The notes under the pieces were generated by a model. It saw nothing but the letters and a program-made list of their open reading frames with translations. It was not told the DNA's origin and ran no database searches. Position numbers and translations under genes: made by a program. From a virus, in the IMG/VR virus record IMGVR_UViG_3300032315_000748: 64,000 bases of DNA. One strand, written 5' to 3'. Numbering within the stretch: position 1 is the first letter of the stretch; every line of letters begins with the position of its first letter. Shown piece by piece: positions 21,188 to 57,418 of this stretch.

Positions 21188-22360
21188 ATGAAAAATTTTA
21201 AAGAGTTTATAGATGAAACTAAAGCAATAAAAATAAAATCACATAAAACTGTAGACCAAATAGCAAAGAAACACAGACTTGATGTTTCTTTTATACAAAA
21301 TCAACTTGAAATGGGAATTCCAATTGAACACGAACATACTCGTGATAAAGTTTTAGCAACTGATATTGCTTTGCAGCATTTGAATGAAATTCCAGATTAT
21401 TATACTCGTTTGAAAAAAATGGAAGCATCTGCAAAAAAAGAACACAAGAAATTTAAAGATGTAAAAGAAGAGAAAGGAGAAATAAGATATTGTAGTCTTT
21501 GTAAAAAAGAAGAATCTCAAGAAGAATGTAAATATGGTCCTGCTATGTGGAATATTAACGCACGAACATTAACACAAAATCAAATTAAGTTTAATACTAC
21601 TAGAATACATCCTGCAAATGAATCAGTGACTATTGAAGATGCAAATGGTAATACTTTTTTGGAAGTTATTGATTTAATTAAACCAGAAAAAATGAAAGGT
21701 GTTAGTGAAGAAACAAAATCTGGTGATTCATCTCTTCACGATTGGTTTTCAAAAAGCAAATCAAGTGATGGAAAGCCAGGGTGGGTTCAGTTGGGGGGCA
21801 GATACGCAGGGAAACCTTGCGCCAAACAACCAGGACAAAATACTAAACCAAAATGTGGATCATCAAAAATGGCTGCAAATATGTCTGATGATGAAGAAGA
21901 TGCAGCAGCAAGAAGAAAAAGAAAAGAAGATCCAAATCCAGATAGGTCAGGGCAAGCAAAAAATGTTAAGACTGAAGAATTTGTAAACGAGGATGCTTGT
22001 AAAGAAAAAGTAAAATCTCGTTATAAGATTTGGCCTTCTGCATATGCATCTGGAGCAGTTGTCAAATGTCGCAAAGTTGGTGCGGCAAACTGGGGAAATA
22101 AGACAGAAAAAAATAATGTCTCGGAAAACTATCTGAGGATACAGACTCGCGGAACAACTTATACTATAGTTCTCAATTGGAGAGGTAAATATATTACAAC
22201 TCAAATGTTCTTTCAACAATTTACTAGACCAACAAAAGTAGAAGTAACAAAAGAAGTTAGAAAAGTTTATCCAAATGCAATTGTATTAGCATTCAATCCA
22301 TCATTAAAAGACCCAACAAAACCATTATTATTTACAGGACAAACTAATGAACCCAGATAA
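21188..22360 (+). CDS. Modular hypothetical protein, candidate capsid-internal polyprotein
   Basis: Own TAAATA (21168-21173); starts MKNFKEFIDE; several unrelated-looking modules separated by x-x-E(E) junctions. Confidence 0.75.
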   Translation: MKNFKEFIDETKAIKIKSHKTVDQIAKKHRLDVSFIQNQLEMGIPIEHEHTRDKVLATDIALQHLNEIPDYYTRLKKMEASAKKEHKKFKDVKEEKGEIRYCSLCKKEESQEECKYGPAMWNINARTLTQNQIKFNTTRIHPANESVTIEDANGNTFLEVIDLIKPEKMKGVSEETKSGDSSLHDWFSKSKSSDGKPGWVQLGGRYAGKPCAKQPGQNTKPKCGSSKMAANMSDDEEDAAARRKRKEDPNPDRSGQAKNVKTEEFVNEDACKEKVKSRYKIWPSAYASGAVVKCRKVGAANWGNKTEKNNVSENYLRIQTRGTTYTIVLNWRGKYITTQMFFQQFTRPTKVEVTKEVRKVYPNAIVLAFNPSLKDPTKPLLFTGQTNEPR

Positions 22361-22535
22361 TATTGAACTTGACAATTTAAGTAAAATTTTTGAATATGAA
22401 AAAATATCAAGAGAATTGGAATCTTGCACCAATATTGATTTATTAAAAAATATTTGTAGGTGTTATGTGAAACTTTATTTAAAGCAACAAGAAACACTAA
22501 CCTTACTGGATATGAAAGAATTTGAGGTAAAATAA
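22347..22535 (+). CDS. NblA-like small helical protein (putative phycobilisome degradation adaptor)
   Basis: 62 aa, predicted helix-loop-helix; L-x2-L-x3-F and LK...Y...Q pattern resembles NblA; judged by eye only. Confidence 0.5.
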   Translation: MNPDNIELDNLSKIFEYEKISRELESCTNIDLLKNICRCYVKLYLKQQETLTLLDMKEFEVK

Positions 22536-22537
22536 GT

Positions 22538-24235
22538 ATGAGTAGTGGTGATCAGTATCTAGGAAATCCTTTACTAAAAAAGGCGAATACGCCAATAGAG
22601 TTTACTAAGGATAATATTGAACAATACATAATATGTAAAGAAGATCCTGTATATTTTGCAAGAAATTATATAAAAATTGTTTCTCTTGATCATGGTCTTG
22701 TGCCATTTGATATGTATAAGTTTCAAGAAAAACTTATCAGTAATTTCCATGATCATAGATTTAATATCTGCAAAATGCCAAGGCAGTCTGGAAAATCCAC
22801 TACTGTAGTTTCCTATTTGCTTCATTACGCAATATTTAATGATAATGTCAATATTGCAATTCTTGCCAATAAAGCGTCTACTGCCAGAGACCTTCTTGGG
22901 AGACTTCAATTAGCATACGAAAATCTCCCCAAATGGATGCAGCAAGGCGTCTTGATATGGAACAAAGGTTCACTAGAACTTGAGAACGGTTCCAAGATTG
23001 TTGCTGCTTCTACTAGTGCATCTGCTGTTCGTGGTGGATCATATAATATTGTATTTTTGGACGAATTTGCGTTCGTTCCAAATAATGTCGCAGAAGAATT
23101 TTTCAGTTCAGTATATCCTGTTATATCATCTGGTAAATCTACCAAGATGATTATTGTTTCTACCCCTCACGGGATGAATCATTTTTATAAAATTTGGCAC
23201 GATGCGGAAAGAAAAAAGAACGAATATATACCAACCGAAGTTCATTGGAGTGACGTTCCCGGTAGGGATGAGGAATGGAAGCGTCAAACAATAGCAAATA
23301 CTAGCGACCAACAATTTGCAGTTGAATTTGAGTGTGAGTTTCTTGGTTCTGTTGGAACTTTAATCAGTGCATCAAAATTGAGAAACTTAGTTTATGACGA
23401 TCCAATAGAAAGAAGTGGAGGATTGGATGTATATGAAGAACCACAAGAAGATCATACTTATATAATGACTGTGGATGTTTCAAGGGGATTAAATAATGAT
23501 TACTCTGCTTTTGTTGTTTTTGATATAACTACGTTTCCATATAGAATAGTTTCAAAATATAGAAATAATGAAATTAAACCTATGCTTTTTCCAAATATTA
23601 TTTTGGACGTAGCAAAAGCATATAATAAAGCATTTGTTTTGGCAGAAGTTAATGATATTGGAGAACAAGTAACAAGTATTTTACATTTTGATTTAGAATA
23701 CGATAATATTCTAATGTGTGCGATGAGAGGTAGAGCTGGACAATTGGTTGGACAAGGATTTTCTGGAAAGAAAACTCAATTGGGCGTTAAAATGTCCAAA
23801 ACAGTAAAAAAAGTTGGTTGCTCTAATTTAAAAACGATTGTAGAAGATGATAAATTAATATTCAATGATTATGATATTATTAGCGAGTTGACAACTTTTA
23901 TCCAAAAAAATCAATCATTTGAAGCTGAAGAAGGATCAAATGATGACTTGGTAATGTGTTTAGTTATCTTTGCTTGGTTGGTTGTCCAGGATTATTTCAA
24001 GGAGATGACTGAAAATGATGTTCGTAAAAGAATATATGAAGACCAAAAAGAACAAATAGAACAAGATATGTCTCCTTTTGGATTCATTACTGATGGTCTA
24101 AATAATGAAAATACTTTTGTTGATACTGAAGGAGATACTTGGAAAGTTATTGGTGGCAATCAAGTTCAAGGTGATGAAAATGGATGGCATCTTGATGAGT
24201 ATGGGGATAGTTCATATATGTGGGAATATAGGTAA
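22538..24235 (+). CDS. gp17: Terminase large subunit gp17
   Basis: Walker A 'MPRQSGKST', Walker B 'FLDEFAF', 'STPHGMNHFY', nuclease 'DDLVM'. Confidence 0.97.
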   Translation: MSSGDQYLGNPLLKKANTPIEFTKDNIEQYIICKEDPVYFARNYIKIVSLDHGLVPFDMYKFQEKLISNFHDHRFNICKMPRQSGKSTTVVSYLLHYAIFNDNVNIAILANKASTARDLLGRLQLAYENLPKWMQQGVLIWNKGSLELENGSKIVAASTSASAVRGGSYNIVFLDEFAFVPNNVAEEFFSSVYPVISSGKSTKMIIVSTPHGMNHFYKIWHDAERKKNEYIPTEVHWSDVPGRDEEWKRQTIANTSDQQFAVEFECEFLGSVGTLISASKLRNLVYDDPIERSGGLDVYEEPQEDHTYIMTVDVSRGLNNDYSAFVVFDITTFPYRIVSKYRNNEIKPMLFPNIILDVAKAYNKAFVLAEVNDIGEQVTSILHFDLEYDNILMCAMRGRAGQLVGQGFSGKKTQLGVKMSKTVKKVGCSNLKTIVEDDKLIFNDYDIISELTTFIQKNQSFEAEEGSNDDLVMCLVIFAWLVVQDYFKEMTENDVRKRIYEDQKEQIEQDMSPFGFITDGLNNENTFVDTEGDTWKVIGGNQVQGDENGWHLDEYGDSSYMWEYR

Positions 24236-24246
24236 GTTTAGCAATT

Positions 24247-24254
24247 TATAAATA
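24247..24254 (+). promoter_or_regulatory. T4-type late promoter TATAAATA (representative copy, before gp18)
   Basis: (TA)TAAATA also recurs just upstream of gp8, gp13, gp15, gp20, 29118, gp22, gp3 and several accessory genes; gp55 is present. Confidence 0.85.
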
Positions 24255-24291
24255 CTTCTAGACAAAATGAAACTTCTTTAGAGGGAAAGAC

Positions 24292-26694
24292 ATGTCGCTA
24301 AACTTAGTATCTCCAGGGGTCAATATAAGAGAAGTTGACTTAACTATTGGGGGAATTACTGCATCAAATGAGCAGGTTGGCGCAATAGCAGGTCCATTTT
24401 CAAAAGGACCAGTCAATGTACCTATTTTAATTCAGAATGAGAACGATCTTCTCAATACATTTGGAAAACCACTTTCTACCGATTCTCAATACGAGTATTG
24501 GTTGAGTGCTTCTTCATACTTATCATATGGAGGAATTCTCAGAGTTCTTAGAACAGATGGAACTACATTAAATAATTCAAACGCTTCAACAGTTGGCAGT
24601 GGTTCAACTACTTTGAAAATTTCTTCATATGAAGATTATATCAATAGCTATTCAACAGCATCTTCTTGGTCCTATGCATCAAGAGATCCAGGAAGTTGGG
24701 CAAATAATTTAAAAGTATGTGTAATTGATGCTGCTGCAGATCAAAGAGTTGCAATTGGAACTTTTGGAATGTCAGTTGGGTATGGCATTACTGTTGGATT
24801 GAACACTTCATATGCTAATACAGATGGTACTGTTGGTTCATCTGTTGGTTATTTGAGAGGAATTATTACTAATGTTGGAAATCAATATGTTGATGTAAAA
24901 GTAACTGACAGATACGATAATGCTGCTGGAACCTCAAGTTTAGTTTCATATTCGCAAAATAGCATCAATTCTTTTCCATCTGGTGTTGGTGTAGCTTATA
25001 TCAAAACATCTTCTGGAGTTTCAACTTCAATTGAAGTAAATAGATTCTATGGATCTATTGGTTCTGGTTCTACAATTATCCTACCACCTTCAATTTCAGT
25101 ATCACTTCCTACTGTTGCTATTGGCAATTTAGTTCAAACAATATCTAATGGTATTGTAAATGAATCTACTATCGTAGGATTAAGTACAACTTCCGTGAAT
25201 GGATCAACACAGACAACTATTGTAACCAATACTGCTTCTGTTGGTGTAGGGACAAATGTTGAGTTTGTAGTAAAATCTCCAGCAGCATCTGGAATTAATT
25301 TTACGACTGGTCCATCAACTCCAACTGTTGTTTCCGATTGGTATAATCTTCAAACTCTTGGACTTACAAATTCAACAGTTTATTGGAAGACAATTGCAGA
25401 AAGACCTTCCACTTCACAATATGTAAATGATAGAAGCGGAAAAAATGATGAGATTCACATTGTAGTTGTAGATGATAGTGGTTCTGTTACCGGAGTTGCT
25501 GGTAATATTGTAGAGAAATTTACATATTTGACAAAAGCATTTGATGGTAAAATTTCACCTACACAATCTGTATATTATAAAGATTTTATTTCTGCAAATT
25601 CAGAGTATATTTTTGCGGGTGCTGCACCAACTGGTTCTGCTACTGGATTCACAAGCACTACTGGATATACAAATACTAATGTTGGTAACTGGGCACAAAA
25701 TGCTCAAGGCACAACTTTCTCTGGCGTAGGAAATATTACTTATAATTTGACTGGTGGTGTTGATTATTCTTCTTCTGGGGGAATGGGCGCTACTCTTGCT
25801 AATATTATTACTTCTTATAATGTTTTATCCAATCCAGCAGAATATCAAGTCAATTTCTTAATTAATGGTCCTTCTGGTGGTGCAACAATCTACGAATCTC
25901 AAGCAAAAGCAAATGCTTTAATTGGAATTGCCGAAGCAAGAAAAGATTGTGTTGCTGTAATTTCCCCACATAAATCCGGAATTGTAAATATTACAAATTC
26001 CGATACTCAAACCACTAATGTTATTAATTTCTTTGATCCAATCACATCCAGTTCTTATGCTGTATTTGATAGTGGTTATAAGTATATGTTTGATAGATTC
26101 AACAATACCTTCAGATACATTCCCTGTAGTGCCGACATTGCCGGTCTGATGGCTAGAACATCTATTAACCAATACTCCTGGTTCTCTCCTGCTGGTGCCT
26201 CTAGAGGGGCAATTAATGGTGCCGTAAAGCTTGCTTACAATCCATCAAAAGCACAAAGAGATCTGTTATATCCAAAGAGAATCAATCCAATTATATTCTC
26301 TCCTGGTGCTGGTATTATTCTTTACGGAGATAAGACTGCACTTTCATATGTCTCCGCTTTTGATAGAATTAACGTTCGTCGTTTATTCCTCACAATTGAA
26401 TCCACAATTGAAAGAGCAGCAAGAGCGCAGTTATTTGAATTCAATGACATAATTACAAGATCAAATTTTGTAAATATTGTTGAACCATATCTTCGTGATG
26501 TAAAATCAAAGAGAGGCATTATTGACTTCTTGGTTGTTTGTGATGAAACAAATAACACTCCCGACGTGATTGATGGAAATCAGTTTAGAGCTGATATCTT
26601 TGTTAAACCTGCAAGATCAATTAACTTCATCGGACTTACCTTTGTTGCTACACGCACAGGTGTAAGTTTTGAAGAAGTTGTTGGAAACGTTTAA
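24292..26694 (+). CDS. gp18: Tail sheath protein gp18
   Basis: 'LVSPGVNIREVDLT', 'WFSPAG', 'FDRINVRRLF', 'KPARSINFI'. Confidence 0.96.
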   Translation: MSLNLVSPGVNIREVDLTIGGITASNEQVGAIAGPFSKGPVNVPILIQNENDLLNTFGKPLSTDSQYEYWLSASSYLSYGGILRVLRTDGTTLNNSNASTVGSGSTTLKISSYEDYINSYSTASSWSYASRDPGSWANNLKVCVIDAAADQRVAIGTFGMSVGYGITVGLNTSYANTDGTVGSSVGYLRGIITNVGNQYVDVKVTDRYDNAAGTSSLVSYSQNSINSFPSGVGVAYIKTSSGVSTSIEVNRFYGSIGSGSTIILPPSISVSLPTVAIGNLVQTISNGIVNESTIVGLSTTSVNGSTQTTIVTNTASVGVGTNVEFVVKSPAASGINFTTGPSTPTVVSDWYNLQTLGLTNSTVYWKTIAERPSTSQYVNDRSGKNDEIHIVVVDDSGSVTGVAGNIVEKFTYLTKAFDGKISPTQSVYYKDFISANSEYIFAGAAPTGSATGFTSTTGYTNTNVGNWAQNAQGTTFSGVGNITYNLTGGVDYSSSGGMGATLANIITSYNVLSNPAEYQVNFLINGPSGGATIYESQAKANALIGIAEARKDCVAVISPHKSGIVNITNSDTQTTNVINFFDPITSSSYAVFDSGYKYMFDRFNNTFRYIPCSADIAGLMARTSINQYSWFSPAGASRGAINGAVKLAYNPSKAQRDLLYPKRINPIIFSPGAGIILYGDKTALSYVSAFDRINVRRLFLTIESTIERAARAQLFEFNDIITRSNFVNIVEPYLRDVKSKRGIIDFLVVCDETNNTPDVIDGNQFRADIFVKPARSINFIGLTFVATRTGVSFEEVVGNV

Positions 26695-26714
26695 TTCAAT
26701 AGAGGAAACCCACA

Positions 26715-27350
26715 ATGGCTAACTTAAACATTCCAAATACAAAAGACAGAACCCTTGATCAATTCAAGGGAAGAATGCTCGGGGGTGGAGCGAGACCTAA
26801 TTTATTTGAATGTGAATTGTTTTTTCCTTCCGATTCAATTCCAGTAGGAACTACCGAAGATGCGCTTTCGGATAAAACTAGATTTTTAGTCAAAGCTGCA
26901 AATCTTCCTGCTTCTACTCTTGGAGTTATTGATGTTCCATTTAGAGGAAGAAACCTCAAAATTGCTGGAGATAGAACATTTGACCCTTGGACCATTACCG
27001 TAATTAATGATTCCGATTTCATAATTAGAACTGCTTTTGAAAGATGGATGAATCTTATCAACAAGCACGAGGATAATGCTGGAAAAAATAATCCAGTAGA
27101 TTACCAAAAAGAAGTTTATGTGAAGCAATTTGGAAGAGCTTTAACTAATGGTTCAACTCCAACAAGTGCAACTCAAATTCCAGTATTGAAGCAATATAAA
27201 TTCTACGGAGTTTTCCCAACTTCAGTAAGTGATATTGCTCTTTCGTATGATTCTTCAGATACAATTGAAGAATTCACTGTAGATCTTCAAGTTCAATGGT
27301 GGGATGCTCTTGATCCTTCTGGCGCAACTCAACTTGGAACTGGAGCATAA
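26715..27350 (+). CDS. gp19: Tail tube protein gp19
   Basis: 'GGARPNLF', 'GDRTFDPWTITVIND', 'IEEFTV'. Confidence 0.96.
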   Translation: MANLNIPNTKDRTLDQFKGRMLGGGARPNLFECELFFPSDSIPVGTTEDALSDKTRFLVKAANLPASTLGVIDVPFRGRNLKIAGDRTFDPWTITVINDSDFIIRTAFERWMNLINKHEDNAGKNNPVDYQKEVYVKQFGRALTNGSTPTSATQIPVLKQYKFYGVFPTSVSDIALSYDSSDTIEEFTVDLQVQWWDALDPSGATQLGTGA

Positions 27351-27375
27351 ATAGTAGAAACTGATTTAATTATTG

Positions 27376-29117: not shown

Positions 29118-29333
29118 ATGGACGATTTAATAGATATGATTGCTGCTGGTGATTCTCAATCACAAGTATCTGATCGGATTAAAGATCTTCTTTTTTCTAA
29201 AAGTGCAGAAAGAATAGATGCAGTAAGACCATATGCTGCTGCTAGTCTTTTTGGTGAAGAAGATTCAGAATCTTATGAAGATGATGAGTCCGATGAAGAC
29301 GATGAAGACGAATATGAAGAAGAGGAAGACTGA
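29118..29333 (+). CDS. Small acidic hypothetical protein (prohead-core position)
   Basis: TATAAATA upstream; D/E-rich tail; lies between gp20 and gp21. Confidence 0.7.
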   Translation: MDDLIDMIAAGDSQSQVSDRIKDLLFSKSAERIDAVRPYAAASLFGEEDSESYEDDESDEDDEDEYEEEED

Positions 29334-29855: not shown

Positions 29856-30506
29856 ATGAAACTAATCACAGAAGAAGTCCAAAAAGTAGAATTTATTGTT
29901 GAAGGGACTGGATCCTCCAAAAGAATGTTCATTGAAGGTATATACCTCCAAGGAAATATGAGGAATCGTAATGGAAGAGAATATCCACTCGAAATTCTTG
30001 ACCGCGAAGTACGTCGTTACAACGAGTCTTTTATTCAAAAAGGTCGTGCTCTTGGTGAACTTGGACATCCAGATGGACCAACAATCAATTTAGATCGTGT
30101 TTCTCATAAAATTACTTCACTTATTCGTGAAGGAAATAACTTTAAGGGAAGGTCACAACTACTTTCTACCCCTATGGGCAAAATTGCACAATCACTTATT
30201 GGTGAAGGTGTGACTCTTGGGGTTTCTTCTCGTGGTGTTGGTTCATTAATTCAAACGAATGAAGGACATAAAGTTGTTGGTGAAGATTTTATGTTAGCAA
30301 CTGCTGCGGATATTGTTGCCGATCCATCTGCTCCTGATGCTTTTGTTCAGGGAATTATGGAAGGAAAAGAATGGGTATGGGATGGTGGAATTTTGAGAGA
30401 GCAATTTGCAGAAAAGACATATAAAACAATAAATACATTAGTTGACAAAAAAATGCTCAATGAGCATAAAGTAAAATTATTTGATAATTTTCTTTCAAAT
30501 CTTTAA
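29856..30506 (+). CDS. gp21: Prohead protease gp21
   Basis: 'NRNGREY', 'GELGHP', 'GVSSRGVGS', 'DIVADPSAPDA'. Confidence 0.96.
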   Translation: MKLITEEVQKVEFIVEGTGSSKRMFIEGIYLQGNMRNRNGREYPLEILDREVRRYNESFIQKGRALGELGHPDGPTINLDRVSHKITSLIREGNNFKGRSQLLSTPMGKIAQSLIGEGVTLGVSSRGVGSLIQTNEGHKVVGEDFMLATAADIVADPSAPDAFVQGIMEGKEWVWDGGILREQFAEKTYKTINTLVDKKMLNEHKVKLFDNFLSNL

Positions 30507-30552: not shown

Positions 30553-31743
30553 ATGTCCCGTGGTAAAAACTTACAAGAAATGGAAACAGGCACTACACAA
30601 TCTCGTACTGCTGTAAATGCCAATGCAAAGGCAGCAGAACCAATGCAAAAGTTGAGCACAGGCATTCCTGATGGTCAAACTGGTAGTTGGGAAGATCTTG
30701 GTGGACCAACACCAGAGAATTACAGATCAGATGATGATTCTGCTAAACTTAAAACTCCTGGTGCAACCCTTAAGCAAGTTAAGGATGTTGTAAATAAAGG
30801 AGCAAAGGCAGCAGAAGCAATGAAAACTGGTGCGGTAAAAGAAGATTCTGAATATGATGATGAAGATGAAGAACTCCTAGAAGCTGCCGAAGAAGAAGAT
30901 ACCGAAGATGAAGACGAAAAGGCAGAAAAGAAAAAATCTTCCAAAAAATCTGAAAAAGATGATGATGATGAAGAAGATGAAGATGACGAAGAAGATGGCA
31001 AGAAAAAAATGGATGAATCCATTAGCATCGAAGAAGATGTTGATGCTCTTCTTGCCGGTGAAGAACTATCTGAAGAATTTAGAGATAAAGCAAAGTTAAT
31101 TTTTGAAGCAGCAATCAATTCAAAGATTTCTGAAATATATGAATCTCTAGAATCACATTATGAAAATCAACTTGTTGAGCAAGTTGAAGAAATCAAATCA
31201 GAATTGACTGAAAGAGTTGATTCTTATCTTGAGTATGTAGCCGATGAGTGGCTACAGGAAAATGCCCTTGTTGTAGAGCAAGGACTTAAAACTGAAATGA
31301 CCGAATCATTCCTTCAAGGAATGAAGGGTCTTTTTGAAGAACATTATGTAACAATCCCTGAAGATAAATATGATGTAATCGAGAGTATGGTAGATAAACT
31401 TGATGAAATGGAGACCAAACTCAATGAGCAAATCGAAAGAAATATTGCTCTAAACCAAAGACTAGCAGAATCGGTTGCCGATGTAATTTTAAGTGATGTT
31501 TCTGAAGGTCTTGCGACCTCCCAGAAAGATAAACTCGCTTCCCTATCTGAAAGTGTTGAGTTTGAAAGTGAGGCAGACTATCGTGAGAAGCTAGCAACAT
31601 TGAGGGAAGCATACTTTCCAAGAAATGCTGGCGCTCAAAGAGGGTATTCGGAAGTAATTTCTGAAGAAGCTGATTATACTCAACCAGTTTCTGGTGCGAT
31701 GGAATCTTATCTTCAGACACTTTCCAGAGTTTCTAAAAAGTGA
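30553..31743 (+). CDS. gp22: Prohead core scaffold protein gp22
   Basis: 'LSEEFRDKAKLIFEAA', 'VDSYLEYVADEW'; acidic coiled coil; synteny. Confidence 0.93.
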   Translation: MSRGKNLQEMETGTTQSRTAVNANAKAAEPMQKLSTGIPDGQTGSWEDLGGPTPENYRSDDDSAKLKTPGATLKQVKDVVNKGAKAAEAMKTGAVKEDSEYDDEDEELLEAAEEEDTEDEDEKAEKKKSSKKSEKDDDDEEDEDDEEDGKKKMDESISIEEDVDALLAGEELSEEFRDKAKLIFEAAINSKISEIYESLESHYENQLVEQVEEIKSELTERVDSYLEYVADEWLQENALVVEQGLKTEMTESFLQGMKGLFEEHYVTIPEDKYDVIESMVDKLDEMETKLNEQIERNIALNQRLAESVADVILSDVSEGLATSQKDKLASLSESVEFESEADYREKLATLREAYFPRNAGAQRGYSEVISEEADYTQPVSGAMESYLQTLSRVSKK

Positions 31744-31791: not shown

Positions 31792-33189
31792 ATGCAAATG
31801 TTCAATGCAGAACAATTGCAGGAGAAGTGGGCACCACTCCTTAATTATGAGGGTCTTGATAAAATCAAGGACTCACATCGTAGAATGGTAACCGCAGTCC
31901 TGCTCGAAAACCAAGAAAAATTCCAAAGAGAGGAGCGCGAGTTCCTTTATGAAGCCCCAACCAACTCAGCTGGTACTGGTGGTTTCTCAAATACTGGTAC
32001 TGGAGCTGTTGCTACTGGACCTGTTGCTGGTTTTGACCCCGTTCTAATCAGCTTGATTCGTCGTTCTATGCCCAACTTGGTCGCTTATGACCTCGCTGGC
32101 GTACAACCAATGAACGGTCCTACTGGACTTATCTTTGCGATGCGTTCACGTTACACCAACCAATCCGGAACTGAAGCATTCTTCAACGAAGTAGATACTT
32201 CATTCTCTGGTGAGAATGCAGGTCAGAACCTTACTGGTTCCTTCACTGACGGTGTTGCTGGTTTCGGTACTACTTCAAATCCAGCAGGTACAAACCCAGG
32301 TCTTCTTAACCCAGTAGGAGTTGCGGCAACCAACACCTATGCTACTGGTCAAGGCATGAACACTGGCGATGCTGAAAATCTTGATGGTAGTGGCGCTAGT
32401 GCGTTCAACCAGATGGCGTTCTCAATTGAGAAAGTCACCGTTACTGCAAAGTCACGCGCATTGAAAGCTGAGTATTCACTAGAACTCGCTCAAGACCTCA
32501 AGGCTATCCACGGTCTAAACGCAGAAGCAGAACTTGCTAACATTCTCTCAACTGAAATCCTTGCGGAAATCAACAGAGAAGTTATTCGTACAATCTACAA
32601 GATTGCCGAGCAAGGCGCTGCTGTTAATACTGCAACCGCTGGTATCTTTGACCTTGACGTTGACTCCAACGGTCGTTGGTCTGTTGAGAAGTTCAAGGGT
32701 CTTCTTTTCCAAATTGAGCGCGATGCTAACGCAATCGCACAAAGAACTCGTCGTGGAAAGGGCAACATGATCCTCTGCTCTGCTGACGTTGCTTCTGCAC
32801 TCACCATGGCAGGTGTTCTTGATTACACCCCTGCTCTTAACGCTAATCTTAACGTTGATGACACCGGAAGCACCTTCGCTGGTGTTCTCCAAGGCAAGTA
32901 TAAGGTCTATATTGATCCTTATTCTGCAAACGTATCTGCTAACCAGTACTACGTTGTAGGTTATAAGGGTTCTTCACCTTATGATGCTGGTCTCTTCTAT
33001 TGTCCTTATGTTCCTCTCCAAATGGTTCGTGCCGTTGGTGAGAACAGCTTCCAACCAAAAATTGGATTCAAGACTCGTTACGGAATCGTTGCTAACCCAT
33101 TTGCTGAAGGCACCGCTCAAGGTTCAGGTCGTCTTCTTGCTAATGCAAACCGTTACTACCGTCGTGTTCGCGTTGACAACCTAATGTGA
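31792..33189 (+). CDS. gp23: Major capsid protein gp23
   Basis: 'GVQPMNGPTGLIFAMR', 'KSRALKAEYSLELAQDLKAIHG', 'FQPKIGFKTRYG'. Confidence 0.98.
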   Translation: MQMFNAEQLQEKWAPLLNYEGLDKIKDSHRRMVTAVLLENQEKFQREEREFLYEAPTNSAGTGGFSNTGTGAVATGPVAGFDPVLISLIRRSMPNLVAYDLAGVQPMNGPTGLIFAMRSRYTNQSGTEAFFNEVDTSFSGENAGQNLTGSFTDGVAGFGTTSNPAGTNPGLLNPVGVAATNTYATGQGMNTGDAENLDGSGASAFNQMAFSIEKVTVTAKSRALKAEYSLELAQDLKAIHGLNAEAELANILSTEILAEINREVIRTIYKIAEQGAAVNTATAGIFDLDVDSNGRWSVEKFKGLLFQIERDANAIAQRTRRGKGNMILCSADVASALTMAGVLDYTPALNANLNVDDTGSTFAGVLQGKYKVYIDPYSANVSANQYYVVGYKGSSPYDAGLFYCPYVPLQMVRAVGENSFQPKIGFKTRYGIVANPFAEGTAQGSGRLLANANRYYRRVRVDNLM

Positions 33190-45288: not shown

Positions 45289-45774
45289 ATGTTTGGAACA
45301 GATTCATTTACACTCACAGTACCACAAACTGCAAAGTATTTGTTGGAAATTCAAAAGAATAGTATTGGGATGGATGAGTGGTTTAAAAAATTTGATAGTG
45401 CGTTTGATACACACACAAATTATCCACCATACAATTTAGTCAAAGAAAGTAGCGTTGAATTTAGATTAGAAATCGCACTTGCTGGATACAAAAAAGAAGA
45501 TATTAGGGTATCTACGGAAGAAAATATACTTACCCTTGATGTAGCAGAAGATAAAAAATCCAAAGATGCTACCGAATATCTTCATAATGGAATAGCAAAA
45601 AGAAGATTGAAAAGAACTTGGACTTTATCTAATGATGTAGTTCTTGGTGATGTTTCTTTTGTTGATGGATTGCTTACCATCAAACTAAATAGAGTTATTC
45701 CAGAGCATCAAAAGAGAAAAGTTTATGAAATCATTTCAGGAGTTCGTGAAGACAATTCGGGAAATGAAGGGTGA
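45289..45774 (+). CDS. hsp20: Small heat-shock protein Hsp20
   Basis: 'NYPPYNL', 'LEIALAGY', 'HNGIAKR', 'DGLLTI.L..VIPEHQK'. Confidence 0.93.
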   Translation: MFGTDSFTLTVPQTAKYLLEIQKNSIGMDEWFKKFDSAFDTHTNYPPYNLVKESSVEFRLEIALAGYKKEDIRVSTEENILTLDVAEDKKSKDATEYLHNGIAKRRLKRTWTLSNDVVLGDVSFVDGLLTIKLNRVIPEHQKRKVYEIISGVREDNSGNEG

Positions 45775-45886
45775 TTTTGGCGCTGATGAAAAGATGAGTG
45801 ATCAACCAGTTAATTGTTATGGTAAAACCGTGAAATATAAAATGGCGCCAAACAAAAAAGTATGTGCCTTTAAAAGAAAAAGATAA
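45725..45886 (+). CDS. Small basic protein with capsid-targeting-like leader (53 aa, not in ORF track)
   Basis: MKSFQEFVKTIREMKGDFGADEKMSDQPVNCYGKTVKYKMAPNKKVCAFKRKR; TAAATA at 45686-45691 inside hsp20. Confidence 0.6.
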   Translation: MKSFQEFVKTIREMKGDFGADEKMSDQPVNCYGKTVKYKMAPNKKVCAFKRKR

Positions 45887-49114: not shown

Positions 49115-49122
49115 GAGGTAAA

Positions 49123-50159: not shown

Positions 50160-50717
50160 ATGTTTATAGATACGCACCACATAATACCAAGATCTGAAGG
50201 TGGAACTGATGATCCAAAAAATCTTGTTAAACTTCCAAGAAGATTACATCAAGAAGTTCATCATCGTAGGTGGTTAGTTGGTGGATCTATTAATGATTTG
50301 TATGCTTTCCAAATATTAGGTGGAAATTTGTCTGATGATGAATTAAATAAAATTTATGAAGATCAAGTTTATAGATGTAAAAGAGATCAAACTAAATTGA
50401 CCGAATCTAGAATAAATTCTGATAAATGGAAACAATCACATCAAAATGATGAATATAAACAAAAGAAAAGAGAGCAGAGTATTTTATTGAATAAACTTGG
50501 AAAGATTAATTCTGAAGAATCCTCAAAACTTATAAGTGAAAAGAAAAAATCGGTGAAAAATTACAATTCAAAATTAATTTCAGTTTATGGTAAAATATGG
50601 GAGGATGCTTCTAAATGTGTGAGGAATGGTGGCTCTAATGGATTAAGTTTAAGACAATTGAGATACCGAGCGAATGAAATTAATTATCCCGATATATTTT
50701 ATGTGGAGCAAATTTAG
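50160..50717 (+). mobile_element. Free-standing HNH homing endonuclease gene
   Basis: 'HHIIPRSEGGTDDPKNLVKL..RLHQEVH' HNH motif plus basic C-terminal region; own TATAAATA at 50128-50135; alternative start 50139. Confidence 0.82.
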
Positions 50718-50719
50718 TT

Positions 50720-51280
50720 ATGGTAATTGATTTAAATTATTTTGTTCAAGTTTATGAAAATGCACTGGAAGAAAATATTTGTGATTTCTTAATTTCATTA
50801 TTTGATCAAGTTCCAGACAAACACGAGAGAGTAGAAAATGAAAGAAAACCAAACTTTACTCAATTCAATCTTACTGAAAATTGTAAAATTACGGAAGAAG
50901 TAAATACTGTTCATAATCATCTAATCAAAAAGACATTTGATTATCGTAATGAATATTATGATATGATTGATAAGAGAGTTTTTCCGGAAGAACACGCATT
51001 TGAACAATTTCGCATTAAGAGGTACAATAATGATGGCAACGATGAATTTGACACTCACGTAGATGTTATAGATCACGCAACATCAAGAAGATATTTGGCA
51101 TTCTTTTGGTATTTGAATGATGTAGAACAGGGAGGAGAAACTAAATTTGCTGATATGATTATACAACCAAAGAAAGGGAGTCTTCTTGTATTCCCTCCTC
51201 TTTGGATGTTTCCTCACGCAGGATTGCAACCAATAAGCAATCCAAAATATATTTTACACACGTATTTGCACTATAAGTAA
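50720..51280 (+). CDS. 2OG-Fe(II) oxygenase
   Basis: 'HVD', 'YLND...GGET.F', 'FP..W.FPH.G......K'. Confidence 0.88.
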   Translation: MVIDLNYFVQVYENALEENICDFLISLFDQVPDKHERVENERKPNFTQFNLTENCKITEEVNTVHNHLIKKTFDYRNEYYDMIDKRVFPEEHAFEQFRIKRYNNDGNDEFDTHVDVIDHATSRRYLAFFWYLNDVEQGGETKFADMIIQPKKGSLLVFPPLWMFPHAGLQPISNPKYILHTYLHYK

Positions 51281-52656
51281 TGGAAAAAGTCGAAACTACT
51301 ATTTTAAGAAATTTACTTTTTAATAATGATTATTGTAGAAAAGTATTACCATTTATTAAAAATGAATATTTTGAAAACCTTCACGAAAAAGTAGTTTTTG
51401 AAGAGATTTGTAAATTTATTGTTGCTTATGATGGTCTTGCGACAAAAGAAGTTCTTTTAATTGAAACTGAAAAAAGAACTGATATTACAGAAGATACTTA
51501 TAAAACAATTTGTGAATATGTTTCTAATTTAGATAATACTCCTGCTGATACGAATTGGGTTACTGATACTACAGAAAAATGGTGTCGTGATAGAGCAATC
51601 TATCTTGCACTTATGGAAAGCATTAAAATTGCTGACGGGCAAGATGACAAGAAGAATAGAGATGCAATTCCAACTATTCTTCAAGAAGCACTTGCTATTT
51701 CTTTTGATGACCATATTGGCCATGATTATCTAAACGATTATGAGGACAGATTTGATTCTTATCACAGAAAAGAAGATAAAATTTCTTTTGATTTGGAATA
51801 TTTTAACAAAATTACCAAAGGTGGTATTCCCAATAAAACACTCAATATTGCTTTAGCTGGAACTGGTGTGGGAAAATCTCTGTTTATGTGTCATTTTGCT
51901 GCATCAGTTCTTCTTCAAGGAAAGAATGTTTTATACATTACACTTGAAATGGCAGAGGAAAAGATTGCTGAAAGAATTGACGCAAATCTTCTAAACATTA
52001 ATATTAAAGACATTGAAACATTACCTAAAATGATGTTTGACTCAAAAATAAATAGTATTGCGAAGAAGACTCAAGGAACTTTAATTATTAAAGAGTATCC
52101 AACTGCTTCCGCACACGCAGGACATTTCAGAGCACTTCTAAATGAACTTTCTCTTAAGAAATCATTCAGACCTGATATTATTTTTATTGACTACCTTAAT
52201 ATTTGTGGCTCCTCAAGATATAAGAGTAATTTTTCAGTTAATTCTTATTCATATATTAAAGCAATTGCAGAAGAACTTCGTGGTCTTGCAGTTGAAGCAA
52301 ATGTTCCAATTGTTTCCGCTACTCAAACTACTCGTAGTGGTTTTTCTAGCTCTGATCCTGATCTTACTGATACTTCTGAATCCTTTGGTCTCCCTGCTAC
52401 TGCTGATCTTATGTTTGCCCTTATTAGCACAGAAGAGTTGGAACAACTCGGGCAGATTATGGTAAAACAATTGAAGAATAGATACAATGACCCAACAATG
52501 AATAAAAGATTTGTAGTTGGTATTGACCGTGCGAAGATGAGATTATTTGATGTAGAGCAAAGTGCTCAAACCGATATACTTGACTCTGGACAAGAAGAAG
52601 AGTATACTTATGAAGAAGATAAACCCAAAAAACAATTCTCTGGATTTAAATTTTAA
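51280..52656 (+). CDS. gp41: Replicative helicase gp41
   Basis: 'LAGTGVGKS', 'ITLEM', 'IDYLNI', 'SESFGLP', 'KNRY'. Confidence 0.96.
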   Translation: MEKVETTILRNLLFNNDYCRKVLPFIKNEYFENLHEKVVFEEICKFIVAYDGLATKEVLLIETEKRTDITEDTYKTICEYVSNLDNTPADTNWVTDTTEKWCRDRAIYLALMESIKIADGQDDKKNRDAIPTILQEALAISFDDHIGHDYLNDYEDRFDSYHRKEDKISFDLEYFNKITKGGIPNKTLNIALAGTGVGKSLFMCHFAASVLLQGKNVLYITLEMAEEKIAERIDANLLNINIKDIETLPKMMFDSKINSIAKKTQGTLIIKEYPTASAHAGHFRALLNELSLKKSFRPDIIFIDYLNICGSSRYKSNFSVNSYSYIKAIAEELRGLAVEANVPIVSATQTTRSGFSSSDPDLTDTSESFGLPATADLMFALISTEELEQLGQIMVKQLKNRYNDPTMNKRFVVGIDRAKMRLFDVEQSAQTDILDSGQEEEYTYEEDKPKKQFSGFKF

Positions 52657-53066
52657 TGACTAAAAAAATTGACTTTTCAAAATATCAAAATTTTGTAGAT
52701 GTAGTAACTTCTGATGCATCTAAAGACTTTCTTGCTCTTTCTGACCGTATGGTAGAACTTGATGAGAAGGGTGCTAATATTGAAAGACTTTTGACTGCTG
52801 GTGTTGGCATTAATGCCGAAGGTGGTGAATTTCTTGAGATTGTAAAGAAAATGCTATTTCAGGGAAAACCTTGGAATGACGAAACCCGTACTCACCTGAT
52901 TAAAGAACTTGGAGATACGATGTGGTATGTTGCCCAAGCTTGCATTGCTCTTGAAGTTTCTTTTGATGAAGTAATTCAAACCAATATTGACAAGCTAATG
53001 AAGCGTTATCCAGAAGGTTACTTTGATGCTTACTACAGCGAAAATCGTGAAGTGGGAGACATTTGA
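52656..53066 (+). CDS. mazG: MazG-like nucleotide pyrophosphohydrolase
   Basis: 'EGGEFLEIVKK', 'ELGDTMWY', 'N.DKL.KRYP'. Confidence 0.9.
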   Translation: MTKKIDFSKYQNFVDVVTSDASKDFLALSDRMVELDEKGANIERLLTAGVGINAEGGEFLEIVKKMLFQGKPWNDETRTHLIKELGDTMWYVAQACIALEVSFDEVIQTNIDKLMKRYPEGYFDAYYSENREVGDI

Positions 53067-53230
53067 TGAATGCTTCAACTTGACCATATAATCATAGACA
53101 TTCTTCGGAATTGTGGGACATTACTGCTGAAATTCTTACAGAACTTTCCAGAAGGGATGGAGTTCGGTATCAAGTGAAAGCAACACCAGAATCTATAAAG
53201 AAAAAATTGGAGAATTTGAAGAACAAGTAA
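53066..53230 (+). pseudogene. Small ORF interrupted by an in-frame TGA at codon 6
   Basis: MNAST*PYNHRHSSELWDITAEILTELSRRDGVRYQVKATPESIKKKLENLKNK; starts by TGATG overlap with mazG. Confidence 0.4.
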
Positions 53231-53241
53231 AATAATAATTT

Positions 53242-53280
53242 AATCCCCCCTCTTTCTAAATATAAGAAAGAGGGGGGATT
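53242..53280 (+). promoter_or_regulatory. Perfect 16-bp inverted repeat with late promoter TAAATA in its loop, covering the downstream RBS
   Basis: aatcccccctctttct-aaatata-agaaagaggggggatt, ending 6 nt before ATG 53287. Confidence 0.8.
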
Positions 53281-53286
53281 TCTTAT

Positions 53287-54354
53287 ATGGCAAATATCGT
53301 AAGACGTGTTCCTATAGATCCATATAAGGTTCAGGGATTGGTTGAAAAAATTGTAAGTAAAAAAGATAATTTGATTTACAAAAAAAATGAAACGATTTAT
53401 ATAATTCCCAAAGATTTAAATAACGGTCCATATATACACAAACTTATATACGAAAAATTAGTTTCTGAGTTTCCAATATCAGAATTTAAAGAATGGACTG
53501 ATGGAGATATAAAAAAAATAAGATCAGTTTCTAATGGAAAGGGTGGAGTTTATACTCAATGCCCCAAGAAAAAAAATCCATCTGTGTTGGGTGCTGGTAG
53601 AGCATATGAATTATATTTTTACTCTGTTATAATGGATGGATTGGTAGATATTAAAGATTTGAGGAAAAAATGGCAAGATATTCCCAATTCAATATTTAAT
53701 ATGTACAATAACTTAACTGTAGTCGTAACATCTAAATCTAAACGTTTTCCTATTGGTCCAATCATATCAGTTGATGATGTAGCAGGAAAAAATGAAAAAT
53801 CAGACATAACAATAACTACTTTGCCCAAAAACGGAAAAAATAAATTTAAAATATCTCTAAAACAATCTAATTTTTTCTCTTGGGGAAGTGCCGGAACTTT
53901 TAATGAAAAACATTCCGCTAGAGCCAAAAAAATATTATTGCAAGCAATTTCTCAAGAAATAGTATCATTAGACACTAATGATGAAAATAGAGTAATATTC
54001 CCATCTGGAATGATGGGTTTGAGATGTCCCGCTACAGATGATGAAATTAATTATTATTGCTTTGGAAGTGGCGACAATACTGCGGATTATATAATTATAA
54101 ATGCTAAAGGGGCAAAATATGATAATCCACAATTAATACATATGGAAGCAGAAAGGGTATATAAAAGAGGCAAGCAATCTGATTTAAATGAACTTCGTTC
54201 TGATGTTTATTTGGTAGTATATGAAAGTAAATCAAATTCTACTGCTTTGAGTCCATATAAAAATTTATCAGTTCAATTTGTCAATAAAAAACACGCTTAT
54301 AATGGAGATATTAAAACTAAGAAAAAATACATACCAATTGATTTTAAAGATTGA
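53287..54354 (+). CDS. Putative PD-(D/E)XK restriction-endonuclease-like protein
   Basis: 'GRAYE' helix, then 'KSDITI...KISLK' (D...SxK variant); Lys-rich. Confidence 0.55.
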   Translation: MANIVRRVPIDPYKVQGLVEKIVSKKDNLIYKKNETIYIIPKDLNNGPYIHKLIYEKLVSEFPISEFKEWTDGDIKKIRSVSNGKGGVYTQCPKKKNPSVLGAGRAYELYFYSVIMDGLVDIKDLRKKWQDIPNSIFNMYNNLTVVVTSKSKRFPIGPIISVDDVAGKNEKSDITITTLPKNGKNKFKISLKQSNFFSWGSAGTFNEKHSARAKKILLQAISQEIVSLDTNDENRVIFPSGMMGLRCPATDDEINYYCFGSGDNTADYIIINAKGAKYDNPQLIHMEAERVYKRGKQSDLNELRSDVYLVVYESKSNSTALSPYKNLSVQFVNKKHAYNGDIKTKKKYIPIDFKD

Positions 54355-54378
54355 ATAAATAATTAAAAACCAATATAA

Positions 54379-55572
54379 ATGAAGACTTTTGTCCAGTTCA
54401 TAATAGAAGCACGAACTACTGCCGCATCCACGGAAGCAAAAAATCGTGGTCTTAAAAGTGATGCCCACGGAGATTATTACGATAATCAAGGAAATCTTGT
54501 AGCAAAGACTGTTGGAGGAAAGTTGCAGTATTTTGGTCAAGGTGGTGCCGGAGCACAACAGCAGCAACAAACACAACAAAAGACTTCACAGACCGCACCA
54601 CAACAAACTGCGCCACAGCAGACTCAAACTGCACCACAGGAAGAGCAACAAGAACCAAATGGTGCAGTAATTGTATTGGGAAGATTCAATCCGCCATCCA
54701 AAAATCACGAAGCACTTTTGAGAGCAGGATATTCGCAAGCAAATAGAAGAAAATTTGAATATCGCATATACCCAAGTCGTATTCAGGATGATGCTACAAA
54801 TCCATTGAATGTAAGACTTAAAGTTTCTTATATGCAATCAATGTATCCACAATATGCAGAATATATTGTGGATAGTGATAAAATGAAAACAATATTTGAT
54901 GTTCTTGAATCTTTATATGGTGATGGATATACCGATGTAGTTATTGTGGTTGGACAAGATAGACTTGGAGAGTTTCAAAGTTTGGCACATAAAGGCGAAG
55001 GAGAAGCATATCAATTCAATACCATTCAGGTAATTTCTGCTGGTGTGAAAGATCCAGATAGTGATGTTGGAGGTGCTGGTTCTTCTGCGATGATGAGAAC
55101 TGCTGCTGCTATGGGAGACTTTGAAAAGTTTTCAAGTGGCCTTCCCGCTACTATGAAGATTAGTGAAAGAAAAGAAATGTTTAATACTATAAAAAGGTCT
55201 ATGAAGGTAAATGAAAATACTGAATTATGGAAAATAGCGCCTGAACTTGATTATAATGGAATGAGATGGAACTATAAGAAAAATGGATTATTTGAGGTGG
55301 GAGCATTCGTTGAAAATTTAAATACTGGATTAATTGGAAGAATACTTCGCAAGGGGTCAAATCATCTTATCTGTGTAACGGAAGATGGAGTAATGTTTAA
55401 GAGTTGGTTAAGAGATTTGAGAGAAGTTCAAGAGATTGGGACTTGTGATTATAGAGCACACGCACAATCAATAACACCCGGACAACCTGTTGTTTCTTAT
55501 ACAGATACTGAAGTTAAAATAACAATGCCAAAGAAAAAGATAAATACTAAAAGAAATAGTGCGCTTAAGTAA
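54379..55572 (+). CDS. Cytidylyltransferase-like (HIGH superfamily) protein with capsid-targeting-like leader
   Basis: 'GRFNPPSKNH', 'VVGQDR', 'SSAMMR.AA' core; MKTFVQFIIE leader; Gln-rich QTAPQ linker. Confidence 0.8.
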   Translation: MKTFVQFIIEARTTAASTEAKNRGLKSDAHGDYYDNQGNLVAKTVGGKLQYFGQGGAGAQQQQQTQQKTSQTAPQQTAPQQTQTAPQEEQQEPNGAVIVLGRFNPPSKNHEALLRAGYSQANRRKFEYRIYPSRIQDDATNPLNVRLKVSYMQSMYPQYAEYIVDSDKMKTIFDVLESLYGDGYTDVVIVVGQDRLGEFQSLAHKGEGEAYQFNTIQVISAGVKDPDSDVGGAGSSAMMRTAAAMGDFEKFSSGLPATMKISERKEMFNTIKRSMKVNENTELWKIAPELDYNGMRWNYKKNGLFEVGAFVENLNTGLIGRILRKGSNHLICVTEDGVMFKSWLRDLREVQEIGTCDYRAHAQSITPGQPVVSYTDTEVKITMPKKKINTKRNSALK

Positions 55573-55576
55573 AAAA

Positions 55577-57418
55577 ATGAAGACTTGGAAAGAAATCATT
55601 ACAGAAGCAGAATCAAGAATACAGAAACAACGTAGAATTGAAGTAGAGAAACTTGCCGATACAGATCCAGATTTTGAAGGAAGTAAAAGACTTCAAAGTA
55701 AAGGAAACAGAACAAAATATATAGAAAAAAAGAAATCTGACTATCAAGATTATTTGGACAGACAACTTGCATTTAAAACGCAAAAATATGAAGACCAAAA
55801 GAAAGCACAAATTGAAAGATTAAGAAAAAAAGGAGTAGAGGGACACGCAGCAGCAGCAAAAGCATCTCTTTCTGGTATTAAAACTCAACAGATTAGTAGT
55901 GATGATAAAGAAGGAACTGCATATTCCAAAGCAATGGGAAATGTAGGGTCTGCTGCTGCTGGCGTTGCTGGTGCGGCTATTCATGGTGTAAAGTTGTTGG
56001 CTGCGAAAAGAAAAGCAGAAGCAGCAGCAAAGGCAGCAAAAGAAGCACAACCAGAAAAGAAAGAGCCAGGAGCACCTGGAAGACCACCACGAGCAAAAAC
56101 AACTACACCAGCATCTACACCAAAAACTACTACATCAACCGCACTAGCAACTAGACCTGCTCCTCCTATGGCGGCCAATAAAAGAAAAATGCTTCCTGCT
56201 TCAAGTCAAGGCGGAACAAGAGTAGGGCAACCAGCACCACGACCCGCTTTGCCTGGGCAAGGTATGAACCAGAAAAAACTTTCTTCCGCAAAAACAATTG
56301 GACAACCAGCACCCCAAAGACCTGCTCTTCCTATGGCAGTTGATAAAAGAAAGATGCTTCCTGCCTCAAGTCAAGGTGGAACAAGAGTAGGACAATCTGC
56401 TACTGGAACAAGACCACAACTTCCAGGAAGTCAAAAGAGAAAGGCAATTCAAGCAGGAACTTATAAACCAATCAAATCTGTCAATGAAAAATATTCCAAT
56501 TGGAGGGAAGAGTTTTTGTTTGAAATTGATGATTTTGGATTAAAAGATAACAAAAAAGAAAAAGGAGAGAAAAAGATTATTGACGTGATGAAAGGAAAGA
56601 ATAAGATTGATATTAATCCAAATGAAACTTCGGTTAAAGAAGAGGTGTCTGGTGTGGATACTCAACAAAATCCAAATCAAGCAAATGATTTAGAAAAAAA
56701 ACAAAAAGCAATACAAAGACAAATCTTATTGAAAAAAATACAGTCATTATCTGTTCCTGGTCCAACTGATATTACTGCATCTTATGACCCAAGAATTGAA
56801 GAGGCATATAAAGACGAAGAAGGCGGAATGTCCCGCAATGAACTTTCTACTGTGGAAAGAGCAATCAAATCTCTTCGTAAAAAAATAAAGTCTAATAATC
56901 AACAGTTGCCTGCTTGGGTCCAATCTAAAATCACAAAAGCAGCAGACTATATTGATACTGCTGCAGATTATATGTCAGGTGAAACTGAACAAGTTAAAGA
57001 AGCATATGATGATGACAATGAAACTTTCCGTCAGCATTCTCGTGAGAGATTTACTGCTGGTCCTGCTGATGATGATAGAGCACAAAGAACTTCTAGAATT
57101 CTTCAAAGAATGAAAGAAATGAATAAAGATGCTGAACCAAAGAAAAAGAAAAAGAAAAAAAAAATTAAACTAGAAGAAGAAGGTCCAGTATTATCTGTTG
57201 GAAGAGGTGAAAAACTTTCAGTAGAAAGGGGTGGAGGACTTACTCAAAAAGGTAGGGATAAATACAATCGTGCTACTGGTTCAAATCTTCAAGCACCAGT
57301 TACTGGTGATGTAAAACCAGGAAGTAAAGCAGCACAACGCCGTAAGAATTTCTGTTCTCGTAGTAGAAGTTGGAAGGGTGAAAGAGGTTTAGCAGCAAGA
57401 AGACGTTGGAAGTGTTAG
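55577..57418 (+). CDS. Modular basic hypothetical protein, candidate capsid-internal polyprotein
   Basis: TAAATA at 55541-55546; MKTWKEIITE start; internal repeats; Glu-delimited modules. Confidence 0.75.
   Translation: MKTWKEIITEAESRIQKQRRIEVEKLADTDPDFEGSKRLQSKGNRTKYIEKKKSDYQDYLDRQLAFKTQKYEDQKKAQIERLRKKGVEGHAAAAKASLSGIKTQQISSDDKEGTAYSKAMGNVGSAAAGVAGAAIHGVKLLAAKRKAEAAAKAAKEAQPEKKEPGAPGRPPRAKTTTPASTPKTTTSTALATRPAPPMAANKRKMLPASSQGGTRVGQPAPRPALPGQGMNQKKLSSAKTIGQPAPQRPALPMAVDKRKMLPASSQGGTRVGQSATGTRPQLPGSQKRKAIQAGTYKPIKSVNEKYSNWREEFLFEIDDFGLKDNKKEKGEKKIIDVMKGKNKIDINPNETSVKEEVSGVDTQQNPNQANDLEKKQKAIQRQILLKKIQSLSVPGPTDITASYDPRIEEAYKDEEGGMSRNELSTVERAIKSLRKKIKSNNQQLPAWVQSKITKAADYIDTAADYMSGETEQVKEAYDDDNETFRQHSRERFTAGPADDDRAQRTSRILQRMKEMNKDAEPKKKKKKKKIKLEEEGPVLSVGRGEKLSVERGGGLTQKGRDKYNRATGSNLQAPVTGDVKPGSKAAQRRKNFCSRSRSWKGERGLAARRRWKC
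56152..56395 (+). repeat. Imperfect ~80-bp direct repeat encoding RPA.PMA..KRKMLPASSQGGTRVGQ
   Basis: Copies at about 56152-56230 and 56318-56395, differing mostly at synonymous sites. Confidence 0.85.

Follow-up and report, generated by a model that had tools for sequence, protein, structure and literature searches.

The 64,000-nucleotide stretch of viral DNA analysed here over its whole length (IMG/VR record IMGVR_UViG_3300032315_000748, hereafter the window) contains four open reading frames (ORFs) that begin with similar short leaders, each preceded by its own TAAATA late promoter. The best reading of these genes, which we hold to be quite probable, is that the leaders act as the capsid-targeting sequence (CTS) of the phage T4 internal proteins does, bringing four different cargo proteins into the prohead, where the prohead protease gp21 would then trim the leaders off. 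The four genes and their promoters are the following (nt, nucleotides; aa, amino acids).

21168..21173, plus strand: TAAATA late-promoter hexamer of gene 21188, 14 nt from the end of the hexamer to the ATG
21188..22360, plus strand: P0001, cargo 1, 390 aa, leader MKNFKEFIDE
45686..45691, plus strand: TAAATA hexamer of gene 45725, within the 3' end of hsp20, 33 nt to the ATG
45725..45886, plus strand: P0002, cargo 2, 53 aa, leader MKSFQEFVKTIRE
54356..54361, plus strand: TAAATA hexamer of gene 54379, 17 nt to the ATG
54379..55572, plus strand: P0003, cargo 3, 397 aa, leader MKTFVQFIIE
55541..55546, plus strand: TAAATA hexamer of gene 55577, 30 nt to the ATG
55577..57418, plus strand: P0004, cargo 4, 613 aa, leader MKTWKEIITE

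These positions bear out a preliminary description of this DNA, which had placed leader-bearing ORFs at 21188, 45725, 54379 and 55577, each with a TAAATA of its own at 21168, 45686, 54356 and 55541, and the spacing from hexamer to start codon is 14-33 nt. When the loose pattern MK-x-[FW]-x-[EQ]-[FI]-[IV] was applied to each ATG on both strands of the 64-kb window, exactly 4 ORFs were matched, all of them at the first ATG of the frame. A relaxed regular expression gave three genuine matches and one out-of-frame 48-aa ORF in the window, and the mean over 20 shuffles was 0.05. Family searches and clustering found no similarity among the bodies of the four leader ORFs, and the mature products of all four were computed to be basic, with isoelectric points (pI) of 8.9-10.0. 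A TAAATA lies at most 60 nt upstream in about 20 of 60 crude gene calls of the window and, because about one third of the window genes thus have this hexamer nearby, the association of leader and promoter within the window is mildly significant at most.

Mutagenesis of the T4 CTS (Mullaney and Black) has traced targeting chiefly to residues 4 and 7 and processing to residues 8 and 10 (PMC9026906). In the window leaders positions 4 and 7 are both Phe in P0001, P0002 and P0003 and are Trp and Ile in P0004, so that the targeting determinants are there in all four, and I8 and E10, the processing determinants that correspond to the gp21 site [LIV]-x-E, are there in three of the four. As a positive control, a degenerate DNA pattern for M-K-x-[aromatic/Leu]-x-x-[hydrophobic]-[hydrophobic]-x-E was run over the T4 genome, and it returned exactly three starts, those of ipII and ipIII (both MKTYQEFIAE) and that of gp61.1 (MKTFKEFIKE); the reversed pattern gave no matches over the same genome. 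The third of these, gp61.1, is an uncharacterised 54-aa T4 protein encoded beside the primase gene (NC_000866 18966-19130, minus strand; locus L151, 267-431), and its leader is nearer to the aquatic consensus than the leader of IPII and IPIII is. A literature search on gp61.1 found nothing relevant. Judged by its sequence, gp61.1 may be an unrecognised packaged T4 peptide comparable to the 53-aa P0002.

The window is a stretch of a T4-like myovirus with 33% guanine plus cytosine (GC), in which almost every gene lies on the plus strand and the core genes have about 75% nucleotide identity to cyanomyoviruses of the Kyanoviridae. Head genes of the T4 type are present in it.

29118..29333, plus strand: gp67-like small acidic prohead core protein
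29856..30506, plus strand: gp21-type prohead protease, aligned over its full length with T4 gp21 and annotated as prohead protease in relatives
30553..31743, plus strand: gp22-type scaffolding core protein, its C-terminal two thirds aligning with T4 gp22
31792..33189, plus strand: gp23 major capsid protein, predicted maturation site EFLYE54↓APT (the arrow marks the cut)

T4 gp23 is cut after Glu65, and in a pairwise alignment the window site EFLYE54↓APT falls on SFLTE↓AEI of T4. The window gp23 site thus fits F-[LI]-x-E↓A, the pattern of the leaders, so that a substrate site like theirs is already available to the presumed protease. The gp21-type protein at 29856..30506 is the presumed leader-removing enzyme and the gp22-type scaffold at 30553..31743 the presumed docking partner of the leader. 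The likeness to T4 internal proteins that was proposed in the preliminary description holds in that the key CTS residues match and that gp21, gp22 and gp23 of the T4 type are encoded in the window. Taken with the portability of the leader, these residues and this head machinery make the assignment of the window genes to the T4 CTS kind a largely supported one.

That the leader is portable became evident when the strict motif MKTFx[EQ]FIxE was searched in IMG/VR, where at least 133 matches in at least 120 loci were obtained and where, among the matches listed, almost all coincide with the first ATG of their ORF. For clustering, the listed matches were pooled with the four window ORFs and 14 leader ORFs of cultured phages, proteins of at least 40 aa were used and the first 12 residues were removed; the resulting 148 leader proteins fell into at least 67 unrelated cargo clusters. 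The leader is restricted to T4-like phages: core genes homologous to those of the window were present in 78 of the 120 listed loci, and a gp23 homologue was present in all three records rated at least 90% complete by CheckV, the other tested records being 5-30% fragments of large genomes. In bacterial and archaeal genomes totalling 596 Gb the same pattern was found at 28 loci only, about half of which are internal methionines or tiny ORFs and four of which are mis-binned T4-like contigs. The leader is also linked to late promoters, as had been asked beforehand of the motif-bearing genes of related genomes, since in the 120 listed loci a TAAATA was at most 50 nt upstream of 54% of leader ORFs versus 17% of other ORFs (odds ratio 5.9, p = 1e-17). 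That the leaders resemble one another by chance, or that the four genes are paralogues of common descent, is a view that has the shortness of the motif, 10 residues, in its favour. However, the shuffles gave 0.05 matches per window against 3-4 observed, the four bodies are dissimilar, the cargo clusters are many and unrelated and the counts in cellular genomes are at chance level; this view is already refuted as far as computation can refute it, and we give it practically no credence.

The cargo that the leader carries in the relatives includes an S-AdoMet (S-adenosylmethionine, SAM) lyase, ART-PolyVal and Tox-ART-HYD1 ADP-ribosyltransferases (ARTs), a GNAT acetyltransferase, a Zeta_toxin-like kinase and a glucosaminidase, and these types fit the enzymes that would be expected for delivery to disarm the host. 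Leaders are present as well in g185 (an acetyltransferase), g127 and g33 of S-CRM01, and the cultured relatives S-SRM01 and DSL-LC02 have several leader genes each. Two kinds of contig stand out among L043, L110, L037, L052 and L091. Some have 3-4 leader ORFs in tandem, and in L043, from IMG/VR and with 27% GC, four lie within 2.4 kb. Three matches come from contigs of 22-23% GC that are 30-132 kb long and that CheckV rates as 5-19% complete, and very large genomes are therefore implied.

At the fixed residues of the leader the synonymous codons vary freely (in the matches listed Thr3 is ACA in 57, ACT in 39, ACC in 18 and ACG in 13), and by this synonymous-site variation a nucleotide-level signal was ruled out as the cause of the leader. 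Of the matches listed 46% have Ala and 17% Ser at position 11, conservation is absent from position 12 on, and its border at E10-A11 sits where the cleavage site would be. These data bear on the view that what the N-termini share is unconnected with the capsid. On that view it would be a feature of the mRNA or of the translation start in strongly expressed late genes, or else a tag recognised by some other partner, for instance a chaperone or a modifying enzyme. The AAA second codon and the AT-rich starts do favour initiation, and the genes are late and probably abundant; but selection acts at the level of the peptide, with F4, F7, I8 and E10 fixed while the codons vary and with conservation stopping at E10-A11, the motif is the same as the CTS defined by experiment in T4 and as the cleavage motif of gp23, virions are enriched in leader proteins, and no conserved partner gene was seen beside the dispersed leader genes. 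We therefore consider this explanation very improbable.

The enrichment in virions is seen in published proteomes of cultured relatives, in which leader-bearing homologues of the window proteins are present in purified particles. For S-CREM2 (OR473000, 175 kb) 52 of 221 ORFs were detected in CsCl-purified virions (PMC10665884); the pre-set DNA pattern matched two ORFs only in this genome, ORF154 (cytidylyltransferase) and ORF6 (SAM hydrolase), and both are among the six non-structural virion proteins (PMC10665884, Table 3). In S-SM1 the sole genuine leader ORF encodes a cytidylyltransferase of the P0003 family, with 25 virion peptide counts (PMC3037559, Table S8). In S-SCSM1, which was the out-of-sample case, the NMNAT encoded by ORF91 both bears the leader and is a virion protein; a pattern match at 199830 of the same genome was discarded, being an internal Met of a tail-fibre gene. 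Over these three phages 4 of the 5 leader ORFs matched by the pre-set pattern are in virions versus a background of 15-24%. A relaxed expression, run on all potential starts of S-CREM2 in the six reading frames, had four matches. They are ORF6, ORF13, ORF14 (a kinase that starts with GTG) and ORF154, each of them virion-detected (hypergeometric p = 0.003); ORF136, which starts MQTFSMFFSE, is also virion-detected. The conserved module of P0001 has homologues in SSM1_115 of S-SM1 (T4-GC119, 13 peptide counts) and ORF160 of S-CREM2 (7 peptides), both found in virions. Because leader proteins of cultured relatives are in the virion proteomes, packaging is well supported for proteins of this kind, and the earlier proposal that such proteins are loaded into the head finds its support in these homologues and same-leader proteins of S-SM1, S-CREM2 and S-SCSM1.

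Several points weigh against capsid targeting by the leader or qualify this evidence. P0002, which reads MKSFQEFVKT, has V8 and has Thr at position 10 where Glu would be expected, and since the next I-x-E, I-R-E at residues 11-13, ends in Glu13, the cleavage point of P0002 is uncertain. The relaxed expression for S-CREM2 was set after the N-termini had been seen, and three of the proteome matches are of one enzyme family. The S-SM1 copy of the P0001 family is virion-associated yet has no leader, and therefore the leader is not the sole route into the particle. In S-SCSM1 a leader ORF of 106 aa, S-SCSM1_30, is without annotation as a virion protein. Small proteins are easily missed by shotgun mass spectrometry. 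The authors of the S-CREM2 study have also pointed out that abundant enzymes might co-purify with virions (PMC10665884).

If the leader is a T4-type capsid-targeting sequence, the four cargo proteins would be made late, each from its own late promoter, and during prohead assembly the leader would dock its cargo onto the gp22 scaffolding core. There the Glu of the leader would be the cutting point for gp21, in a motif (F-I-x-E↓A) that the gp23 maturation site shares. The mature proteins, which are basic, would remain alongside the DNA and in all likelihood be ejected together with it when a cell is infected; the cargo would then act ahead of any phage gene expression. The docking partner, the cleavage of the leader, the ejection and the role of each cargo in the host are steps that we infer, the ejection from T4 and from the types of enzyme with cytoplasmic targets that are found among the cargo. 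Delivery to the host and effector roles of the cargo are plausible by this analogy. It could be, however, that the leader loads the head and the cargo works inside it, as internal proteins that condense DNA or neutralise its charge or as assembly factors, and not as delivered effectors. The basic pI of all four mature products agrees with this, as do the Lys/Arg-rich composition of P0004 and its DUF6321 module, which resembles that of DNA-binding proteins, and the fact that P0001 and P0004 have no recognisable enzyme domain. Against it, other leader cargo consists of enzymes with cytoplasmic targets (SAM lyase, ADP-ribosyltransferases, GNAT and NMNAT-like enzymes), and ejection is established for Alt and the internal proteins of T4 (PMC9026906). 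We regard a role inside the head as rather unlikely, though clearly less so than a capsid-unrelated N-terminus.

The cargo is as varied as the preliminary description had it, namely a predicted enzyme (P0003), two long modular basic proteins (P0001 and P0004) and a small basic peptide (P0002). The P0001 gene is placed between those of the small terminase (gp16) and the large terminase (gp17). The protein has DUF5661 after the leader and a conserved module at residues 172-310, and its mature pI is 9.5. Its orthologues (L006, L026 and L093) differ from one another by entire inserted blocks, with a Cys-rich block directly after the leader in relatives and a CxxC-containing block at residues ~93-163 in the window protein. 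These block differences fit modular shuffling.

With P0002 the earlier figure of a 40-aa basic peptide needs qualification, as the ORF itself encodes 53 aa, and the 40 aa, with a pI of 9.8, stand for the form that would remain after the predicted cut at Glu13. No Pfam or PHROG family was found for P0002. In L018, L048 and L072, too, small leader peptides are encoded with hsp20 on one side and a gene of phrog_431 on the other, and it is by this conserved position that P0002 was validated. The hsp20 gene is thus a conserved upstream neighbour of the small leader peptide.

45289..45774, plus strand: hsp20 small heat-shock protein

The 3' end of hsp20 contains both the late promoter and the start codon of P0002, which overlaps the last 50 nt of that gene (45725-45774). 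At its C-terminus the window hsp20 is about 15 aa longer than its relatives, in whose genomes hsp20 and the small leader gene do not overlap.

P0003 (phrog_395) is ordered as leader, an N-module at ~12-52, a Gln/Pro-rich linker, a nucleotidyltransferase domain of the HIGH superfamily at ~95-275 and a C-terminal small beta-barrel. It had no sequence match in Pfam, NCBIfam or PDB, and matches came only from PHROGs and from a fold search. Its AlphaFold2 model has a mean predicted local distance difference test score of 72 (80-94 in the core) and is closest to NadM, NadD, NMNAT and PPAT, with a Foldseek probability of 1.0, and its motifs GRFNPPSKNH and GSSAMMR match the (H/T)xxH and ISSTxxR-like motifs of nucleotidyltransferases. 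P0003 is accordingly predicted to be an NMNAT-like nucleotidyltransferase. The leader is kept in 118 of 120 close homologues of P0003, and members of this family have been detected in the virions of S-SM1, S-CREM2 and S-SCSM1. The N-module (window 54412-54534) is a small beta-hairpin with a consensus of roughly A.K.GL..DGHG.WY...G..VAKT, and the same module follows the leader of an unrelated protein, the S-CREM2 virion kinase ORF14 (L146, 7580-9847, minus strand). This N-module could be a second packaging or DNA-binding element.

In P0004, whose pI is 10.0, the leader is followed by long basic stretches of low complexity and, at the C-terminus, by a DUF6321 module. What is instructive about DUF6321 is that it occurs with and without the leader. 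As a stand-alone protein of 75-83 aa, very basic and with an ordinary N-terminus, it is present in the T7-like cyanophage S-TIP28, in the pelagiphage HTVC028P and in the Methylophilales phage Venkman, whereas in T4-like contigs it comes directly after the leader, in 95-aa proteins (L021, L038 and L119), or at the end of a long leader protein. DUF6321 is thus without a leader in podo- and siphoviruses and has one in T4-like phages only, and therefore the leader has been added specifically where head assembly is of the T4 type. That the leader is part of the DUF6321 domain was ruled out, as the podovirus copies have none. The stand-alone DUF6321 of podo- and siphoviruses (L162, L163 and L164) ends in RRRWKC and is encoded directly upstream of terminase or recombination genes, and it may be a DNA-associated internal protein in those phages too. 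In a P0004 orthologue (L095, the ORF containing 4569-5531) the leader and the first module are tandemly duplicated in frame, so that MKTWKEIITE occurs twice.

The statement that three of the four genes lie outside the head-gene cluster needs one qualification: two of them adjoin virion structural genes in a second late cluster, where the neighbours are a tail-fibre-like gene at 57420 and a virion structural protein gene at 58420. The tail-fibre-like gene (57420-58418, phrog_30742), which follows P0004, starts MSQELNDFFKLLAED and has a leader-like F..LL.E shifted by four residues. In S-CREM2 the Cas9-like virion protein ORF12 has LRFASFMAE↓A at residues 17-25. From these two cases it may be that longer propeptides occur as well.

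Among known systems, the ejection proteins of SPN3US and phiKZ are varied head cargo with propeptides that are cut after Glu by a gp21-like protease. These giant phages are like the window phage in their T4-like prohead protease and in the large and varied head cargo that is predicted for the latter, but their propeptides are long and unshared, whereas here one short tag is reused across families. Iyer et al. in 2017 reportedly described polyvalent packaged proteins with effector-type domains such as ART-PolyVal. The nearest system is the CTS of T4 IPII and IPIII (MKTYQEFIAE; PMC9026906), which has in common with the window leaders a 10-residue N-terminal leader with an aromatic residue at 4, F or I at 7, I or V at 8 and Glu at 10 followed by a small residue, and which shares the gp21, gp22 and gp23 machinery and the basic mature products. 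Unlike T4, the window phage is a cyanomyovirus of the Kyanoviridae and not a T-even phage, its predicted cargo includes an enzyme and modular proteins of 43-66 kDa, and its leader genes are scattered with their own late promoters, whereas T4 has two ip loci. The T4 ADP-ribosyltransferase Alt is a head-packaged, gp21-trimmed and injected enzyme that acts before phage gene expression (PMC9026906); it differs in having other propeptides, at both termini, and not the 10-residue CTS, and the relatives of the window phage put a CTS-type leader on unrelated ART families.

Cytidylyltransferase or NMNAT-like enzymes, SAM hydrolase and kinases have been reported in cyanophage virions (PMC3037559, PMC9602691, PMC10665884). 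These virion-associated 'regulatory' enzymes are of the same families as cargo 3 and the cargo of its relatives and were found repeatedly in CsCl-purified particles, but in those papers true packaging was left open and no mechanism was given. In the literature searched no earlier link of cyanophage virion enzymes to a CTS-type leader was found. What the present analysis adds is the positive control in T4, the negative control in cellular genomes, the DUF6321 swap and the match to three virion proteomes.

Several laboratories have thus found enzymes in purified cyanophage particles and could not tell cargo from contaminant, and the shared T4-type leader offers both a mechanism and a simple sequence test for this distinction. 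Another use could be the packing of foreign proteins into the heads of cyanophages by means of the leader, for which T4 offers a precedent. If the reading is true, a list of what T4-like phages of marine and fresh waters deliver ahead of their own gene expression could be drawn up from metagenomes; restriction that depends on SAM would be blunted by an injected SAM lyase, and an injected NMNAT-like enzyme might counter defences that deplete NAD (nicotinamide adenine dinucleotide). In its widest form, for which we see about even chances, the CTS-type leader would be an address label that can be read from sequence in the Kyanoviridae and in other aquatic T4-like phages, and the whole set of injected proteins would be predictable from genomes and metagenomes. 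That set, with its SAM lyases, zeta-type kinases, NMNAT-like enzymes, ADP-ribosyltransferases, acetyltransferases and small basic peptides, would then be, on the same even chances, a large and fast-evolving first-strike arsenal against the defences of cyanobacteria.

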